Positions 2,856-57,510 of a stretch of 64,000 nt of DNA are shown in pieces. The notes beneath the pieces are model-generated. The model saw only the letters and a list, made by a program, of their open reading frames with translations. It ran no database searches and was not told where the DNA came from. The first letter of the stretch is position 1. Each line of letters opens with the position of its first letter. This DNA is from TPA_inf: Saccharomyces (taxonomy: Eukaryota), in NCBI GenBank assembly GCA_000146045.2, contig BK006948.2, positions 992,001-1,056,000 of the forward strand. The letters run 5' to 3'. The position numbers and the translations under genes are program-made.

Positions 2856-3017
2856 ATTCTTCTTGGCACACTACTATCATTTTTTCTCGCCGTTTCTAGT
2901 AGAAAAGGGCAACTTTTACTTAAAAATCATACAATTGACTTACTTTTTTTTTTTTACACAGATACCTTTTTATTTTGAACTACGCGCAGTTTGAAAGAGG
3001 AAGAGATAATCCTATGA

Positions 3018-4511
3018 TTACTCCAAAACCTTCTTCTTTTTCGGTATTGCCTGAGAAATGATAACACTTTTGGGTAACTTCCTTTTCCAGTCTGAATTTA
3101 TACTTTCTAGTTTAGGGCCTTCGTTATTGCACAATATCTTTTTGTAATATAATCTCTCTAATTGACTTAAGTGTTTTGCAATCCAAATATGTTTGAGACC
3201 TTGCTTACTATTTAATCGTTTAACTACGTCAGTTTGCAAAAGGTCTTTGACAAAACTCTTGGCATTATCTGAAACAATATCCCACTGCTTCAGTTTGAAA
3301 TTCAGCTTCCCAATTTTTGCATTTTGAATAATACTCCTCTCAGAACCATCTCCATAAAAAGGCGAGATCCCTGTTAACATAATGTGTGTAATGACACCCA
3401 AAGACCAAAGATCACATTTACTGTCATAACCTCGTTGCTCTAACGTAGCTGCTCTTGAGAAGCTTTGATATGCTTTTCTGTTTGCTCTGAATCCAACTTC
3501 TGGAGCGCAGTATTCCGGAGTGCCTACGACAGTATGCATTCTTTCTTTGTTGGAATTTAAATCTTTAGCTATACCAAAGTCTGCCAAGACGATTCTAGTG
3601 CACGGTTCTGGCGTACATAACAAAATATTGTCTAGTTTCAAATCGCGGTGAACAATGTCTTGATCATGAAGGTAGTTTAAAGCTTGCAAAATTTGAAAGA
3701 CGATCAATAGCGATTCAGTTTCTGACATGGAAGTTAGACAGTCGCCTTTAGCTAGGTAAGAAAACAAATCACCACCAGGGATAAGATCCTGGAATATGTA
3801 AAGGTGATTGTTCCTGTCACAGAAAGTATGGTAGACTTTGATAATATTTGGGTGATCCAGTCTCAAAAGGATTCGAGCCTCTTTATCGAATTTATTTGGT
3901 TTTAGTTTAATGATCTTCACAGCATAATTTTCAGGGTGATAACAGACATCTTCATCACGTTCTTTTGAGTTATGCGTGATCAGAACATGACCGAAAGTGC
4001 CATTACCCACTATTCTATTTGTTATTTCCCATTGGTCTACTTCCCTCAGAAAACCCATTTGATCTAAAAGTTTTGGGTCCAGAGAAGATTGTAAATCATC
4101 ATTAATCATAAAAACTAGTCGTGTTTTTTTAATGTCATTTTCTTCACTTCCCTGCGATAATTCAATAACGTCGCAATGTTTTAAAAGATACGTTTTGTCC
4201 CTTTTCAAAAGCAAACCGTTCAAATACGTTCCATTAAGAGAACAATCTTTAACGTAGAACATTGGAATACTATCCTCATCAAAAAAGACACACCAAAACA
4301 CGCAATGAACAGAGGAGATAGAGGGATTCGTTAGAACGAGTTGACATTCCTTATCATTTCTCCCAACTTTCACGAGCTGATGCTTTACTATAGGTATTGT
4401 CTGCTCTGTATTATAGCCGCCTACATTAACTTCCAGGTGAGCAGGAGCTACGCCACCTGCCATCTCAATATCATCTTTGGTTGCAAGGTTGCAGCTATAC
4501 AACGGTCTCAT
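3018..4511 (-). CDS. MEK1: Meiosis-specific Ser/Thr protein kinase with N-terminal FHA domain (497 aa)
   Basis: FHA-like N-terminus followed by kinase motifs (GNGTFG, HRDLKLDNIL, DFG, TPEYCAPE). Track start at 4574 is GTG; first ATG at 4511 gives 497 aa. Upstream URS1 elements support a meiotic gene. Confidence 0.9.
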   Translation of the reverse strand: MRPLYSCNLATKDDIEMAGGVAPAHLEVNVGGYNTEQTIPIVKHQLVKVGRNDKECQLVLTNPSISSVHCVFWCVFFDEDSIPMFYVKDCSLNGTYLNGLLLKRDKTYLLKHCDVIELSQGSEENDIKKTRLVFMINDDLQSSLDPKLLDQMGFLREVDQWEITNRIVGNGTFGHVLITHNSKERDEDVCYHPENYAVKIIKLKPNKFDKEARILLRLDHPNIIKVYHTFCDRNNHLYIFQDLIPGGDLFSYLAKGDCLTSMSETESLLIVFQILQALNYLHDQDIVHRDLKLDNILLCTPEPCTRIVLADFGIAKDLNSNKERMHTVVGTPEYCAPEVGFRANRKAYQSFSRAATLEQRGYDSKCDLWSLGVITHIMLTGISPFYGDGSERSIIQNAKIGKLNFKLKQWDIVSDNAKSFVKDLLQTDVVKRLNSKQGLKHIWIAKHLSQLERLYYKKILCNNEGPKLESINSDWKRKLPKSVIISQAIPKKKKVLE

Positions 4512-4637: not shown

Positions 4638-4647
4638 TAGCCGCCGA
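4638..4647 (-). promoter_or_regulatory. URS1 (Ume6-binding early-meiotic element), perfect TCGGCGGCTA on the MEK1 strand, about -130 from the MEK1 ATG
   Basis: + strand reads tagccgccga. A second partial copy TGGCGGCTA lies at 4652-4660. Confidence 0.6.
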
Positions 4648-5212
4648 AATTTAGCCGCCATCATTCTTCTTTTCCCCGGCTAAATTACCACGGTATGCTT
4701 TATGATTGGAAAATACCCATAAAGTAGGAATAAACTACAAATGATTCCACTTAATGAAAGATAAGCAGACAAATATACTGCATATAAGTGAAAAATAGTG
4801 AGGAGATCGCTATCAGTCAATATTGTGAAGGACCTACCTACTCTTTTTCTAGATATATATTTTTTATTTGCACAGGACCCCTCTTGCATAATTGTTCCTA
4901 CTAATACGGTAGGTAGCACACAATTTTACACCACTTGCTTTACAATCATACCTCATAGGGCCTTCTTATTCTGATAATGCCCCTTTTAGAATGGCTAAAC
5001 TGCTTACGTCCCGCTTTCTTACGCACTGCGCGCAACATGCAGGAAGAACAAACAACCTCGCCCTGTTTCCATAATGAAGGTCCTTGAAATAGAAGCCCCA
5101 CAAAAGGGTGGAAATGTGGCAGAATAAACAGTAAGCTAACTGTTGTAGAGACTCCAAGCCCTGGTAAGGAAAGAAATATTATAAAAATAAAAGATTTCAA
5201 CACAGTATTTTG

Positions 5213-9146: not shown

Positions 9147-11225
9147 TTAAGTCAACTTTTCTGGAACAGTAATTCCATCACATTCTTTTAAAATTTGAAT
9201 ATCCTTAGGGTTGGGACGAAAACCCTCATTAGTGCCTAAATCTCGCATAAACTGGTTAATAAAAGCAACCTCTTTGTCAGATAACTGCTGAGTATTGCGT
9301 GCAAATGTGGCCAAGTTGAATAGAATTTTCGAAACGGCCAAGTTCGACACCCTGATACTTGAATCCTTAGCTAGATTGTAGTACTTTTCGATGTAGGGAA
9401 CGTACTCGCTATGTTTACTCTTGTAAAGTTTATCACAGAACCCCAATAATAAAGCATTTAGAGGCGTATTATCCACGTTTCTCTTTCTAGTCTTTTGATA
9501 TGAGAGAAAATCAGAAAACAAATTCTTTGCCTCGGCCACTGTGCCGTCAGGCTTATTAAACTCTGCGGAAATAAAGTCTGCATAATTCCTAGCATTTAAG
9601 TGAGTTCCCAATTGTTTGTAAAGTTGACGAATCGGCTCGACAGTGGGGCACACTGAAATAAAGGCTTTCGTAATCTTTTCAACCTTTTCATAATCGGTGG
9701 GATTAATGGAAACACTTTGCAATAGATCGAATTGTGGGCGTGTATCTTCTGCCTGAAATTTATAATTAGCGTACATTTTAATGCTTAGAGTATCCAAAGT
9801 AGGGGGTAACACACCATCTGATGGATAATGGTTATAGTAAAATGTGTTGAATTGTTCTTCGCTCACTTTTTCATCATCTAACATTAGCAATAAAACTTTA
9901 TTGAACAACTTCTTGGTTTTAACAGTCTCTGCTAACTCCCCTTTGACTTGGTCATACTTTAGAGGCGAAGTTTGACATAAGGCCAGGAGAAATGCTTCCT
10001 TCACGATGGGATCTTTCTTGAACTTTTTAGGAAGTTCTTCTTCCCAAAATTCCTTTAAATGGTTGAAATTTCCAGAATCAGTTAGTGCGTTAACTAGCGT
10101 CGCATAAGATGTGTTTTTAATATTATCTCCTGGTTTGATAACACTGTTCCAGACTGCTAGAATTCTGTCCAACTTCTCTTTACTCGATTTAGCTCGTAAG
10201 TGCGACACAGCTCTTAAAAGACAATCTTTCAGCGACGTACTATTTGGGAAAACCTTGCTATACTGGTTATAAATAGTAACAACTTGGTCGGGTTTATCCA
10301 AATCAATAAACTTGTCCATGAACTTGCTTATGATCTCTACATTTTTCTCACCTTCAAGTTTATTGTATTGGCCATAAAGATCCCTTAAATCTATCCATCT
10401 AGGAGCATTTTCAATTTGACTTAAGAAATGATCACTATCCTGTACTGTGTATTGATAGTACAAAGTGTTTAGATTTTTGATAATCACGTCTCTTCTTTCA
10501 AGAGAGCTAAATTCTGTACTTAACATTCTTCTAATCATGTTAAAAGGTAAAACCTGGCCCATTTTACGATCGATCTGTAAAATCTTATACAGAATATTGA
10601 TATCCACAGTATTCTCTGGTAAAGATAAGTAAGCAATGGTGGTAATTGCAATATTTTGCATATGTGCACGAGAAGAACTATTTTGAAGTAAGATCACTGG
10701 GTTTTCGGAAATGGTTTCCAAGTACTTCACCCATAAGGCAATAACGTCCTGTGGTGATTGATTATATAGAAGGTACTTTAAAACAATCGTGAAATGTTGT
10801 GAGCGTGCCAATTTGTATTGGCACAATGTGTTTAATACTTGATAAGGATCTAGCGTCATATTTTTGCTTCTGTAACTTAATTCCTGTAGGAGATCCGAAG
10901 AAAAATTCGCTAACAAGTGTGATCTTTCCATAGGTGAAGGGTTCCTTAATTTCTGTTTCAACGATTCAATCTTATCTTTAAAGTCATTAAAAACTTCATT
11001 GATATCTGAATCTGGAGCTTTCAACTCGTTCTTCAAATCAGCAGCCAAATTTTGTACCCTTTCAAACGGTGAGACGTGCTTTTCTCTATTTCCTGAATGT
11101 CCATCATCTGTTTCTTGTAAGTGAACGCTGCTTTGTTGGTATATCGATGTTGAAGAGGTTAGACATCTTCGTGAAATAATCACCTTTGAACAATCAAAGG
11201 CCCTTAAAGCATTATGGGAAAGCAT
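9147..11225 (-). CDS. MSC6: Mitochondrial PPR-like protein Msc6, named for meiotic sister-chromatid recombination (692 aa)
   Basis: Track start at 11333 is GTG; first ATG at 11225 gives 692 aa. Helical-repeat composition. Order matches YOR354C. Confidence 0.75.
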   Translation of the reverse strand: MLSHNALRAFDCSKVIISRRCLTSSTSIYQQSSVHLQETDDGHSGNREKHVSPFERVQNLAADLKNELKAPDSDINEVFNDFKDKIESLKQKLRNPSPMERSHLLANFSSDLLQELSYRSKNMTLDPYQVLNTLCQYKLARSQHFTIVLKYLLYNQSPQDVIALWVKYLETISENPVILLQNSSSRAHMQNIAITTIAYLSLPENTVDINILYKILQIDRKMGQVLPFNMIRRMLSTEFSSLERRDVIIKNLNTLYYQYTVQDSDHFLSQIENAPRWIDLRDLYGQYNKLEGEKNVEIISKFMDKFIDLDKPDQVVTIYNQYSKVFPNSTSLKDCLLRAVSHLRAKSSKEKLDRILAVWNSVIKPGDNIKNTSYATLVNALTDSGNFNHLKEFWEEELPKKFKKDPIVKEAFLLALCQTSPLKYDQVKGELAETVKTKKLFNKVLLLMLDDEKVSEEQFNTFYYNHYPSDGVLPPTLDTLSIKMYANYKFQAEDTRPQFDLLQSVSINPTDYEKVEKITKAFISVCPTVEPIRQLYKQLGTHLNARNYADFISAEFNKPDGTVAEAKNLFSDFLSYQKTRKRNVDNTPLNALLLGFCDKLYKSKHSEYVPYIEKYYNLAKDSSIRVSNLAVSKILFNLATFARNTQQLSDKEVAFINQFMRDLGTNEGFRPNPKDIQILKECDGITVPEKLT

Positions 11226-11663
11226 CTGTATCCCAGTGGAAGGCTCTGATATTATTTTGTGCAGAGCCAACTTAAGCAAACATATAGACAGTACGTCCTT
11301 AGTTAGACATGTGTAGCAATTGAACGATTCCACAGGCGGTATGTATATCGTATATGATGATATTACATTTTACTTACCCCGCTTTTTCCCTCTTATAATC
11401 GATTAATTACTTAGTCGACGAGCAACCTTTTATGGCATATTTGAAAGGTAATACAATGTTCCAACTTCGTTTTTTATTCACAGATCAATTAACGTATTGG
11501 CACACCTGATATTTCCTCAATAGTAAGTAGTTTTGGTGATGTAACTTTGACACTACCTTCGACCGAATATTCACTTATAAAACTTATATATTACTTGCTT
11601 TTACTTCTAACTTGTCTGGAGAGTTCAATCTTTGTTTTCAGCTCTATATACCGGTTTTCTGCA

Positions 11664-11673
11664 TCGGCGGCTA
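11664..11673 (+). promoter_or_regulatory. Perfect URS1 consensus TCGGCGGCTA in the MSC6-GDS1 intergenic region, about 440 bp upstream of the MSC6 ATG
   Basis: Exact 10-mer match read directly from the sequence. Confidence 0.4.
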
Positions 11674-13136
11674 AATGGTATTCTTTTCCGCTTGGCTCTA
11701 CACAATGTTTATTAAGCTGAGCGTCGGTGTTTCCGATTTGGACCGTTTGACTTTCTTTTTGGACTGGTTTTCTTTTTTAGTACGAGGTGTACGGACAAAA
11801 GATACTAACGGACAAAACGCGGTTGCAACTGAAATTTTTTTTTCACTATTTTCGTAGGGCACATTGGTGTAAATATATATATATATACTCAAGGTTCATC
11901 TCGTTTTTTTTAATATTCTTGTTCCTTACTCTTGATCATACGTAGAATGTATGTCTTTATCCTGAAAGTAAAGAAAGGATTATACAATGCTGAAATGTTA
12001 GTACTAAATATGAGCATACAATCACTTGTTGTTCACTAGTTCAACGAGTTTCATTCATATTCAACTCACGCAAGGGATTATGGAAGAAGAATCCTTTTTA
12101 TGAAAGGGAAAAAAAACCGAAATACTATGTTAACTGCTTCCAACGCTCTATACTAATGCGCATGAAGATTTTACTTGCGAATCAAACTGATTCGCACGCA
12201 ATATCTAAGTCTGCTATACCTACCTTACATCTCGCCGTATGTTATGGGTGCAAGGGTGTTTTTTTTTTTTTATATTTTTTTTGTTTGGGGTTTTCGATAC
12301 TTTGTGAAGGAACGACGCAGAAAAAAACGAAAATCATACGCCCGATGAAATTTTTGATAAGAAAATTTTCTGAAAACCCATGCGATGAGAAGTCAAAAAT
12401 TTTTCTTCTTCTCCTTTTCTTGTACTTTTATCCCGGCTAGTTCTTTTTCTAAAATTTTCATATTCCAGTCCAATATTTTACTTCATTTTTTTTTTCTGTT
12501 CTCGCTTGGCTTGATTTAATTTTTTACGTAGGTTTTTTTTACACGATATTGTTTGTATTATCAGTATTCCCTTCAAGCTCCCCTTTTTTTTATCAATTAA
12601 GGTTCTTGGTAATTTCTATTTCTGAAAAACCAAAAACAAAAAGTCATTGATTGACTATTTGACTCAAATTACCAAAATCATAACTTTTCTTTTCAGCATT
12701 CCATTATTGAAGGCTTTAAAATAATAGTTTCTTTTTTCCTATTATTTTATTTTTTCCTTTACATTGGAATACATTTTATTTTGAGTTTTAATTTTTTTTA
12801 TTTTCTATTCCATTGTTTTTTATTTGCTTTGGACTGCCCTTTTCGTAATAATTTCCCTTTTTACCCTATTTTAGTCACTTCTGTGTCAGCAAGCGGGATT
12901 ATATAAAGAAACGTTAGCAGAAACAATATCAGCAAAATAGAAAATAAACGGGCAATCAATCAATAACTACAGAAATATTGGGAGGTTTTAACTAATTTTT
13001 CCAGGATATTTCAACTTTTCATAAATCAAATTTTTTTTACTTTTTTTTTTGCTTTGCTATAGTATTTTAGAAAAGGACAAAAAAATACGAAAAAAGACAA
13101 AAAACCATATAAAAAAATTGATTAGAAGAACTTATA

Positions 13137-14705
13137 ATGGCATTGGCAAATTCCAGACCTTTGCAAATACCAACTTTAGAGAATGAAATTCTTCATAACT
13201 CAAATTCTCCAGTATTTCAGTTGAATTCAATGGGATTTACAACTAGAGCTGACACTATTTCGAATCCAGGCACGGATCTTATCGGCAACCAGCCAGGCAT
13301 GGCCCTTGATGATAATAATTTGGCCGGTTCTTCGTTTTCCTCATCTCAGGAAATAAAAGCTACCAAACCTAAGAAGGACTTTGGTGCTCCCAAAAAAGAC
13401 AATCCATTATTAGAAATTTCTAAGCTAATACCTGTTACTGGTGAGAGGCCAAAACCCGAAAATAGAGACTCCCCTCTGGATGATGACGTTCTTCACGCAG
13501 TTTTTTTAATATTATGGGAAATGGATCCGAATCAACAAGGCATGACCGTCAAACAACTGTGTGACTTGCTTTTGCAAAAACATCCAGATATGTCCAATTT
13601 ATCAACCAAGTTGTCAAATTTAATTTCCGCAAAACTGAACGCTTATGTTAAAAAAATTGAAAAAGGTGAGAAAACGTTAACTTATGCTTTATCAAGGGAA
13701 TGGTCTAATTCATCTCCTAGAAGGATGCTCTATATATACAGAGGCATATTATCTCCCGATTACAAGGAGCATGCTCAAGCTGTTACGATGCAACTTAAAC
13801 AACAATTGGAGACCTCCGGTGATACAAGCGACTTTAATTCAAATGGCAAGAAAAAAAGGGAGTCCAGCAGTAACCAGCTAGTTAACAATGACAGTTATTC
13901 AAGTTCTATGACGGACATGAAAAATATGTCTTCTAACAGTTCCTTCTCAAAAAATTTGAATGTAGGGAATCTGGCCTTTTCATTAAGTCCAGAATTCAAC
14001 ATACCTTATTCCACTTCTCCAGTGTCACTAAATCTTTCCCCATCGATGAGTAATAATCAGCAACAATTACTGACACCTAATTCGGCATCGAAGAGTAAAA
14101 ACAATAATAAAAAAAGAAATTACATGGATGAAGATACTAACGAGTCAATGACCGAGCCAAAGAAAACCAAAACTACTAAACCTGGCAAACAAACAAAATC
14201 CCAATCTTTATCAGTTTTATCCACCCCCAAAAAGGGTTCCTCTGCATCTCTTTCTACATTTGCAAGCTCCAAGAATATTTCGCCAGATTCTTCTCTGTCG
14301 CATAATGCATCGTCAAATACTTATGTTACTGCCGCTGCCGCTGCACCAAGGCTTTCTAAGCTTTTGCCGAAAAATGGGTTTAAGAAAAATTCACGTAGCT
14401 CTTCTGAACTGGCTGCTATCCATAAAGTAATCTCTACACAGACTCCAATTGAGAGCTCTTCAGAGAGCTCTCAATATAACAGTAGTAGTAGTTCACCAGT
14501 TAATAGTGCAGCTGCTTCTTCTGCTGAATCTTTATCCGACATCAATTCCAGTCAGGATAACGGAAGAGAATCAAACCCAAGTTCCCAAGAATCACGAAAC
14601 GAAGTTACGAATTGGATGAAAATTGTGAGAAATGGATTTTTGACACATGATATTGAATCTCCTGAATCAATCACATTAGATGACCTAGAAAATATATTCA
14701 ATTGA
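13137..14705 (+). CDS. GDS1: Ser/Asn-rich low-complexity protein Gds1 (522 aa)
   Basis: ATG at 13137; 522 aa. Long Ser-rich low-complexity region. Long T-rich upstream region. Matches YOR355W. Confidence 0.75.
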   Translation: MALANSRPLQIPTLENEILHNSNSPVFQLNSMGFTTRADTISNPGTDLIGNQPGMALDDNNLAGSSFSSSQEIKATKPKKDFGAPKKDNPLLEISKLIPVTGERPKPENRDSPLDDDVLHAVFLILWEMDPNQQGMTVKQLCDLLLQKHPDMSNLSTKLSNLISAKLNAYVKKIEKGEKTLTYALSREWSNSSPRRMLYIYRGILSPDYKEHAQAVTMQLKQQLETSGDTSDFNSNGKKKRESSSNQLVNNDSYSSSMTDMKNMSSNSSFSKNLNVGNLAFSLSPEFNIPYSTSPVSLNLSPSMSNNQQQLLTPNSASKSKNNNKKRNYMDEDTNESMTEPKKTKTTKPGKQTKSQSLSVLSTPKKGSSASLSTFASSKNISPDSSLSHNASSNTYVTAAAAAPRLSKLLPKNGFKKNSRSSSELAAIHKVISTQTPIESSSESSQYNSSSSSPVNSAAASSAESLSDINSSQDNGRESNPSSQESRNEVTNWMKIVRNGFLTHDIESPESITLDDLENIFN

Positions 14706-54225: not shown

Positions 54226-55803
54226 ATGAATGAAATCGATGAGAAAAATCAGGCCCCCGTGCAACAAGAATGCCTGAAAGAGATGATTCAGAATGGGCAT
54301 GCTCGGCGTATGGGATCTGTTGAAGATCTGTATGTTGCTCTCAACAGACAAAACTTATATCGAAACTTCTGCACATATGGAGAATTGAGTGATTACTGTA
54401 CTAGGGATCAGCTCACATTAGCTTTGAGGGAAATCTGCCTGAAAAATCCAACTCTTTTACATATTGTTCTACCAACAAGATGGCCAAATCATGAAAATTA
54501 TTATCGCAGTTCCGAATACTATTCACGGCCACATCCAGTGCATGATTATATTTCAGTATTACAAGAATTGAAACTGAGTGGTGTGGTTCTCAATGAACAA
54601 CCTGAGTACAGTGCAGTAATGAAGCAAATATTAGAAGAATTCAAAAATAGTAAGGGTTCCTATACTGCAAAAATTTTTAAACTTACTACCACTTTGACTA
54701 TTCCTTACTTTGGACCAACAGGACCGAGTTGGCGGCTAATTTGTCTTCCAGAAGAGCACACAGAAAAGTGGAAAAAATTTATCTTTGTATCTAATCATTG
54801 CATGTCTGATGGTCGGTCTTCGATCCACTTTTTTCATGATTTAAGAGACGAATTAAATAATATTAAAACTCCACCAAAAAAATTAGATTACATTTTCAAG
54901 TACGAGGAGGATTACCAATTATTGAGGAAACTTCCAGAACCGATCGAAAAGGTGATAGACTTTAGACCACCGTACTTGTTTATTCCGAAGTCACTTCTTT
55001 CGGGTTTCATCTACAATCATTTGAGATTTTCTTCAAAAGGTGTCTGTATGAGAATGGATGATGTGGAAAAAACCGATGATGTTGTCACCGAGATCATCAA
55101 TATTTCACCAACAGAATTTCAAGCGATTAAAGCAAATATTAAATCAAATATCCAAGGTAAGTGTACTATCACTCCGTTTTTACATGTTTGTTGGTTTGTA
55201 TCTCTTCATAAATGGGGTAAATTTTTCAAACCATTGAACTTCGAATGGCTTACGGATATTTTTATCCCCGCAGATTGCCGCTCACAACTACCAGATGATG
55301 ATGAAATGAGACAGATGTACAGATATGGCGCTAACGTTGGATTTATTGACTTCACCCCCTGGATAAGCGAATTTGACATGAATGATAACAAAGAAAATTT
55401 TTGGCCACTTATTGAGCACTACCATGAAGTAATTTCGGAAGCTTTAAGAAATAAAAAGCATCTCCATGGCTTAGGGTTCAATATACAAGGCTTCGTTCAA
55501 AAATATGTGAACATTGACAAGGTAATGTGCGATCGTGCCATCGGGAAAAGACGCGGAGGTACATTGTTAAGCAATGTAGGTCTGTTTAATCAGTTAGAGG
55601 AGCCCGATGCCAAATATTCTATATGCGATTTGGCATTTGGCCAATTTCAAGGATCCTGGCACCAAGCATTTTCCTTGGGTGTTTGTTCGACTAATGTAAA
55701 GGGGATGAATATTGTTGTTGCTTCAACAAAGAATGTTGTTGGTAGTCAAGAATCTCTCGAAGAGCTTTGCTCCATTTACAAAGCTCTCCTTTTAGGCCCT
55801 TAG
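54226..55803 (+). CDS. ATF1: Alcohol O-acetyltransferase 1 (525 aa)
   Basis: Acyltransferase HxxxDG motif (HCMSDGRS). 525 aa. Confidence 0.9.
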   Translation: MNEIDEKNQAPVQQECLKEMIQNGHARRMGSVEDLYVALNRQNLYRNFCTYGELSDYCTRDQLTLALREICLKNPTLLHIVLPTRWPNHENYYRSSEYYSRPHPVHDYISVLQELKLSGVVLNEQPEYSAVMKQILEEFKNSKGSYTAKIFKLTTTLTIPYFGPTGPSWRLICLPEEHTEKWKKFIFVSNHCMSDGRSSIHFFHDLRDELNNIKTPPKKLDYIFKYEEDYQLLRKLPEPIEKVIDFRPPYLFIPKSLLSGFIYNHLRFSSKGVCMRMDDVEKTDDVVTEIINISPTEFQAIKANIKSNIQGKCTITPFLHVCWFVSLHKWGKFFKPLNFEWLTDIFIPADCRSQLPDDDEMRQMYRYGANVGFIDFTPWISEFDMNDNKENFWPLIEHYHEVISEALRNKKHLHGLGFNIQGFVQKYVNIDKVMCDRAIGKRRGGTLLSNVGLFNQLEEPDAKYSICDLAFGQFQGSWHQAFSLGVCSTNVKGMNIVVASTKNVVGSQESLEELCSIYKALLLGP

Positions 55804-57179: not shown

Positions 57180-57236
57180 TATTGCGGCTGTGGCGGCTAT
57201 TGCGGTTGTCGCCACGCTTGTCGCCAGGGTTGTCGC
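57180..57236 (+). repeat. Degenerate 9-bp tandem repeat (TATTGCGGC TGTGGCGGC TATTGCGGT TGTCGCCAC ...), about 280-330 bp upstream of AMF1
   Basis: Three clear 9-mers followed by 2-3 diverged units. Contains a GGCGGCTA URS1-like core. Confidence 0.7.
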
Positions 57237-57510
57237 TACGAATGTTTCAGCTTTTTTTTCAATGGGCCACTCTTTTCACGTGAAGCGCTCCACGAAATGT
57301 GCGGATATTGCGGAAGCTCTCAATGATGAGCTATCGGTAGGGATTAAAATAAACGAGATTTGGCAGCAGTTTTAAATACCAAGGGAGTAGTATATCTAGC
57401 CTCCAATAACTTCATTTGTGGAAACTTACTTCTATCTCACTCTCTACCTGAAAAGAAAACAAATATTGTACATTCATCAATTGCTGGAACATAAAGAACA
57501 TAAAATCAAT

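Follow-up and report, generated by a model that had tools for sequence, protein, structure and literature searches.

Ume6 is a Zn2Cys6 regulator that binds URS1 elements, through which it generally silences transcription in vegetative and premeiotic cells, while at meiotic entry Ime1 joins Ume6 and the complex activates, with a usual range of action of URS1 of about 100-300 bp. The closest described systems with which the locus studied here can be compared are the NDC80-LUTI and other Ime1-Ume6 prophase LUTIs (Chen et al. 2017; Chia et al. 2017; PMC8153250), and MSC6 itself has been listed among them. LUTIs are long undecoded transcript isoforms, i.e. 5'-extended transcripts of meiotic prophase, and in the survey of Tresenrider et al. 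(2021, Mol Cell 81:2231; PMC8153250), which combined transcript-leader sequencing (TL-seq) with nanopore direct RNA sequencing in synchronised SK1 meiosis, 74 loci with a prophase-specific transcription start site (TSS) upstream of the CDS-proximal TSS were reported as candidate LUTIs. MSC6 is one of these 74 loci and one of the five that were taken into single-gene experiments, and its LUTI has been verified by RNA blot (PMC8153250). Like the other prophase LUTIs, MSC6 possesses a conserved URS1 at about 100 nt upstream of the distal TSS, is bound by Ume6, depends on Ime1-Ume6 and carries upstream open reading frames (uORFs) that block translation of the CDS. It differs from NDC80, SWI4 and APL4 in that the proximal promoter of these genes is strongly shut off, whereas the proximal MSC6 transcript stays about constant and the protein level is unchanged when the LUTI is removed.

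Further points of comparison are located within the window, that is, the whole 64-kb stretch of DNA that was analysed. MEK1, a canonical Ume6 target in the published tables (PMC8153250), shares with MSC6 an identical URS1 10-mer and its extended core, and its promoter is likewise Ume6-bound, conserved and sensitive to ume6-T99N, which encodes a Ume6 protein that is unable to bind Ime1 (PMC8153250). The perfect MEK1 copy (4638-4647, minus strand) precedes the MEK1 ATG (4511) by 127-136 nt and is one of two tandem URS1 cores, TAGCCGCCGA at 4638-4647 and TAGCCGCCAT at 4652-4661, which are separated by 4 nt. The two genes differ in distance and in outcome, since the URS1 is about 130 nt away from the ATG at MEK1, where it yields a productive mRNA, and about 440 nt away at MSC6, where a constitutive promoter follows and the isoform that it yields is non-productive. 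Divergent from MEK1 is TFB6 (YOR352W), a published LUTI for which Ume6 enrichment, URS1 and conservation are all recorded as Yes (PMC8153250). Published coordinates refer to the paper's own assembly and were transferred to the window with the MEK1 CDS as anchor (chrXV:959574-961067, 1494 nt, equal to window 3018-4511; offset 956,556). On this basis the TFB6 5' extension maps to about 4766-5138, with its distal TSS at about 4766 and thus some 105-130 nt from the MEK1 URS1 pair, so that a single URS1 pair serves MEK1 (productively) and TFB6 (non-productively) in opposite directions. The TFB6 LUTI resembles that of MSC6 in its URS1-TSS spacing and in its unrepressed proximal transcript (log2FC -0.18), but its URS1 also serves a canonical meiotic gene, whereas the MSC6 URS1 is without a known divergent partner.

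MNE1 (YOR350C) is another prophase LUTI of this region, with a log2FC of +6.6 for the extension and -4.9 for the proximal transcript, and with neither a Ume6 peak nor a URS1 of its own (PMC8153250). Its mapped extension, in the stretch 2890-3042 (MNE1 upstream region and MEK1 3' end), starts within the MEK1 3' end, which suggests that the MNE1 LUTI arises by read-through of, or initiation inside, the MEK1 unit that the URS1 drives. The first 12 kb of the window hold three of the 74 published LUTIs.

Position, rarity and conservation of the MSC6 URS1

The MSC6 (YOR354C) CDS was placed at 9147..11225 on the minus strand (692 aa plus stop) from the ORF list, homologues and synteny. The mechanical ORF extends to a GTG at 11333, and the ATG of the 692-aa protein is at 11225. 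The identity of the locus is secure, because its homologues carry the name Msc6p and it has SOG2, TFB6 and GDS1 as syntenic neighbours in related genomes. GDS1 (YOR355W), which was identified by a Pfam match to WH_GDS1 (the GDS1 winged-helix domain), starts at 13137 on the plus strand, and the interval between the two ATGs measures 1911 bp. A search of this interval for a hidden gene returned no ORF longer than 94 aa, no tRNA (ARAGORN) and no Rfam match at E <= 1, and the MSC6-GDS1 intergenic region contains no Ndt80 middle-sporulation element (GNCRCAAAW). With respect to the protein, published work ascribes to Msc6 a role in mitochondrial translation initiation without formylated Met-tRNA; the description of Msc6 as PPR-like in the original prediction found no confirmation at the level of sequence profiles, where a Pfam search of the protein detected neither PPR nor any other significant domain.

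The 10-mer TCGGCGGCTA is an exact (10/10) URS1 with an intact GGCGGC core at 11664-11673 on the plus strand, in antisense orientation relative to MSC6, and it spans -439 to -448 of MSC6 since the MSC6 ATG is at 11225 on the minus strand. This is in line with the original prediction, which had placed a perfect 10-mer about 440 bp from the corrected ATG in a gene-free interval of 1.9 kb, had put the number of chance copies below 0.2 and had named MEK1 as the only other site of a perfect copy. The two strands of the window together indeed contain two perfect copies, the second being the one at MEK1, against 0.01 expected, with the chance level taken from dinucleotide-preserving shuffles of the 64-kb window (two copies were reached in 0 of 100 shuffles). 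When one mismatch is allowed, 6 sites are found versus 0.88 expected. Additional GGCGGCTA cores are present elsewhere in the window, at 57192-57199, about 225 nt upstream of an ORF starting at 57418, and at 54731-54738, inside ORF 54226-55803.

Conservation was determined over the 700 nt that precede the MSC6 ATG, in a five-way alignment comprising S. cerevisiae and four Saccharomyces relatives that were found by Msc6 protein search (Msc6 identities of 86%, 80% and 77%, plus S. eubayanus with 77%). In this alignment, 28% of the columns are invariant, and the longest invariant run of the entire 700 nt is ATTTAGCCGCC, which is the extended core GGCGGCTAAAT (11666..11676, plus strand) written in the MSC6 sense and is shared by all five lineages, with 21% invariance across the 50 nt to either side. 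An 11-nt invariant run arises in 1 of 5000 column shuffles, and the distance of ATTTAGCCGCC to the MSC6 ATG has been kept between -439 and -467 among the five lineages. The exact 10-mer occurs in the 86% relative as well, while the remaining three relatives read TTGGCGGCTA. It follows that the perfect 10/10 match is not the conserved entity, because its position 2 is C in two of the five lineages and T elsewhere; as to conservation of the 10-mer in relatives, the core is retained by five of five lineages and the exact 10-mer by only two. Our result agrees with the published phastCons call 'Conserved: Yes' (PMC8153250). The second URS1 copy of the MEK1 promoter (core 4652-4659) carries the 11-mer GGCGGCTAAAT as well, at 4649-4659. 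Beyond the genus, GGCGGC is absent upstream of MSC6 in the four non-Saccharomyces loci inspected, including those of Torulaspora globosa, Zygosaccharomyces rouxii and Nakaseomyces glabratus, and at these four loci the upstream neighbour of MSC6 also differs from that in Saccharomyces. This comparison represents a modest extension of the published sensu stricto analysis.

A second conserved block was observed at 11786-11843, 115-170 nt upstream of the URS1, where the MSC6 sense reads GTGAAAAAAAATTTCA.TTGCAACCGCG...TCCGT.CACC. The TACTAAC at 11803-11809 had been regarded as coincidental in the original prediction, and it can be attributed to chance because the window holds 6 copies versus 6.9 expected; it is moreover not conserved. 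In the two most distant lineages, a second URS1-like core, CTGCCGCCGAT or CTGCCGCCGGT, is aligned with the S. cerevisiae TACTAAC. On the plus strand, GTATGT at 11339 could be combined with this TACTAAC and with an AG near 11857 into an intron-like set of signals, and the candidate intron was rejected because GTATGT and TACTAAC are specific to S. cerevisiae, TACTAAC is at its chance count and no plus-strand gene extends across them.

The 5'-extended MSC6 isoform and its translation

Taken together with the published data, the MSC6 URS1 is very probably a functional Ume6 site that serves as promoter element of a distal, meiosis-specific TSS from which the MSC6-LUTI is made. Table S2 of the survey lists YOR354C MSC6 as 'Ume6 enriched: Yes', 'URS1: Yes' and 'Conserved: Yes' (PMC8153250), where Ume6 enrichment denotes a ChIP-seq peak with log2FC > 2 at a distance of at most 300 bp from the LUTI TSS in at least two of three replicates, and where conservation of the URS1 was called by phastCons. 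According to Table S3, the MSC6 5' extension (urs1_motif TRUE) is induced with wild-type Ume6 by a log2FC of +4.32 (padj 3e-14), or about 20-fold, versus a non-significant log2FC of -0.19 (padj 0.84) in ume6-T99N (PMC8153250). The proposal that a URS1 ties MSC6 to early meiosis through Ume6 was therefore correct with regard to factor and stage, both meiotic induction and a Ume6 ChIP-seq peak being on record, but it erred in expecting productive induction, as the induced transcript is a LUTI. The URS1, its factor, its conservation and its transcript are already known at MSC6, and the finding is not new, having appeared in 2021 together with experiments on this very locus (PMC8153250); a literature search for MSC6/YOR354C with Ume6 retrieved nothing beyond Tresenrider et al. 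2021 and its preprint. That a reading of the bare sequence arrived at an experimentally validated element and at the correct transcription factor can be considered a positive control. Regarding the basis of the present account, Ume6 occupancy, Ime1-Ume6 dependence, the distal TSS and the block of translation by the uORFs are published (PMC8153250), while the present analysis established the motif and where it lies in relation to TSS and primers, the four upstream ATGs (uATGs) and the conservation island.

The LUTI-specific 5' extension, published as chrXV:967803-968117 (PMC8153250), maps to 11247..11561 on the minus strand, and the same conversion via MEK1 positions the distal TSS at about 11561 (-336) and the proximal TSS at about 11246 (-21). 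The mapped distal TSS agrees with the independent published description of the LUTI-deletion construct, in which the deletion ends at -335 and what remains lies downstream of the TL-seq start, and the published MSC6 LUTI qPCR primers match exactly within the mapped extension, at 11409-11428 (minus strand) and 11259-11278 (plus strand). Given that the distal TSS maps to -335/-336, the URS1 is situated 103-112 nt upstream of it. A TATA-like TATATA at 11645..11650 on the minus strand, located between the URS1 (about 15 nt away) and the LUTI TSS (about 85 nt away), may act as a core promoter element of the LUTI; it is present in S. cerevisiae only and is not conserved in the five-way alignment.

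The LUTI leader has a length of 315 nt, and exactly four uATGs occur between the two MSC6 start sites on the minus strand, each opening a uORF of 1-3 codons: uORF1 (ATG CCA TAA) at 11430..11438 with its uATG at -213, uORF2 (ATG TAA) at 11363..11368 with its uATG at -143, uORF3 (ATG TCT AAC TAA) at 11299..11310 with its uATG at -85, and uORF4 (ATG TTT GCT TAA) at 11272..11283 with its uATG at -58. This number fits the fact that MSC6 does not figure among the LUTIs that the paper tabulates as having fewer than four uORFs. The putative leaders of all five Saccharomyces species contain uATGs, at non-aligned positions, which matches the view that uORFs stem from the background frequency of ATG (PMC8153250). 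Translation of an N-terminally extended Msc6 from the long isoform was also considered, as the frame is open for 36 codons up to the GTG at 11333, with no in-frame uATG in S. cerevisiae; in the 86% and 80% relatives, gene callers took in-frame uATGs at -84 and -45 as the starts. This extension was rejected as non-conserved, being missing in the two most distant Saccharomyces lineages. In the same region, the Abf1 consensus RTCRYNNNNNACG is matched exactly by ATCATCATATACG at 11349..11361 on the minus strand (-124..-136 relative to the MSC6 ATG). The positions that the consensus specifies, ATCAY...ACG, do not vary among the five species while the spacer does, a pattern that is typical of a real site, and this candidate Abf1 site is likely part of the constitutive proximal promoter that LUTI transcription crosses.

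These elements can be assembled into a model of how the locus very probably operates. In vegetative and premeiotic cells, Ume6 would keep the distal MSC6 promoter off, as expected from the general behaviour of URS1 elements. Upon meiotic entry, Ime1 would convert the URS1-bound Ume6 into an activator, and transcription would then start at the distal TSS some 105 nt downstream, at -336. The resulting MSC6-LUTI bears the 315-nt leader, and its CDS is poorly translated because the four very short uORFs capture scanning ribosomes. LUTI transcription would also cross the constitutive proximal promoter (TSS at about -21, with the Abf1-type site) and dampen it mildly, with the amount of Msc6 protein being buffered. 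In this regard, Table S6 reports for the proximal MSC6 transcript in prophase versus premeiotic cells a log2FC of -0.44 that is not significant (padj 0.35; PMC8153250). Deletion of the MSC6 LUTI promoter (-800 to -335) increases the proximal mRNA in meiosis and does not raise Msc6 protein (PMC8153250); the deleted segment amounts to 466 bp and takes out the URS1 together with the second conserved block at 11786-11843. As regards the repression by which a fully effective LUTI is defined, MSC6 displays a proximal change short of significance and a protein level that is not raised by LUTI deletion. MSC6 is best described as a weakly repressing or 'buffered' LUTI, because its proximal transcript is steady and removal of the LUTI leaves the protein level as it was.

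It could be argued instead that the URS1 forms part of a conventional early-meiotic promoter, which would raise productive MSC6 mRNA and Msc6 protein and so explain the recombination phenotype. The motif and its Ume6 dependence are as at MEK1, and total RNA across the MSC6 locus does go up in prophase (PMC8153250), but several observations make this explanation very unlikely. The URS1-driven TSS is 336 nt away from the ATG with four uATGs in between, and genome-wide the 5'-extended isoforms of the published set are negatively correlated with CDS ribosome footprints (rho = -0.297; PMC8153250). Furthermore, the proximal MSC6 isoform has a separate, constitutive TSS and does not rise, and extra Msc6 protein is obtained only upon mutation of the uATGs: when all uATGs of the leader were changed to ATC, Msc6-3V5 protein was higher at 4 h and the proximal mRNA was not (PMC8153250). 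Where a URS1 is located far from the ATG with uATGs in between, a LUTI of repressive or neutral effect is to be expected and not induction of the gene, which means that motif-to-ATG distance and intervening uATGs have to be weighed jointly with the motif itself.

Wider context and further readings

If the URS1 is accepted as the promoter element of a LUTI, its biological purpose might be sought in mitochondria. The published LUTI list also includes MNE1, RPO41, MBA1, HSP60, TIM23, MIC10, MIR1 and COX16 (PMC8153250), and a mitochondrial retuning, in the sense of a coordinated change of gene-expression and biogenesis factors in meiotic prophase, could be what these transcripts reflect. The combined proposition that URS1 and LUTI are an innovation of the genus Saccharomyces, that they are part of such an Ume6-timed retuning and that the msc6 phenotype is downstream of it has, in our estimate, a rather small chance of being correct. 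If true, the sister-chromatid recombination phenotype of msc6 would be a downstream effect of a disturbed mitochondrial programme. A literature search for MSC6 with meiotic 'sister chromatid' returned nothing relevant and no link of the URS1 to the msc6 recombination phenotype.

The direction in which the URS1 acts has to be considered as well, since it is active in both orientations and the URS1 pair at MEK1 serves both MEK1 and the TFB6 LUTI, and since the MSC6-GDS1 intergenic region is unusually long and in part very conserved. The element might accordingly act the other way, with GDS1 or a divergent non-coding transcript as its target. We consider this very unlikely indeed: at 1464 bp, the distance to GDS1 far exceeds the usual URS1 range, the published table of prophase-specific intergenic and antisense TSSs is without an entry near the MSC6 locus, and YOR355W appears in none of the supplementary tables (PMC8153250). 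Finally, any 10-mer may arise randomly, and nothing further speaks for a chance copy without function, the probability of which is next to nil in view of the 0.01 copies expected, the Ume6 ChIP enrichment, the T99N dependence and the 11-nt invariant island in divergent flanks.

The GDS1 side of the interval

Apart from the MSC6 URS1, for which action as a LUTI promoter element remains our preferred reading, the intergenic region shows features of its own on the opposite side. The 640 bp adjoining GDS1 (12500-13136) are far more conserved than the MSC6 side, with invariant runs of 30, 25 and 20 nt among four Saccharomyces lineages, e.g. at 12971-13000, 12638-12662 and 12752-12771. Within 12500-13136 there is no ATG-initiated plus-strand ORF and no Rfam match, and this segment may correspond to a conserved 5' leader of GDS1 of considerable length or to an element that is so far unannotated. 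A perfect GCGATGAG, the core of which is invariant in four species, is found at 12382-12389, some 750 bp ahead of the GDS1 ATG, and it is adjoined by AAAATTTT runs within 12340-12410. We take GCGATGAG to be the PAC motif and the AAAATTTT runs to be RRPE-like. The pairing of PAC and RRPE is a promoter signature of ribosome biogenesis, and a putative pairing of this kind upstream of GDS1 is unexpected.
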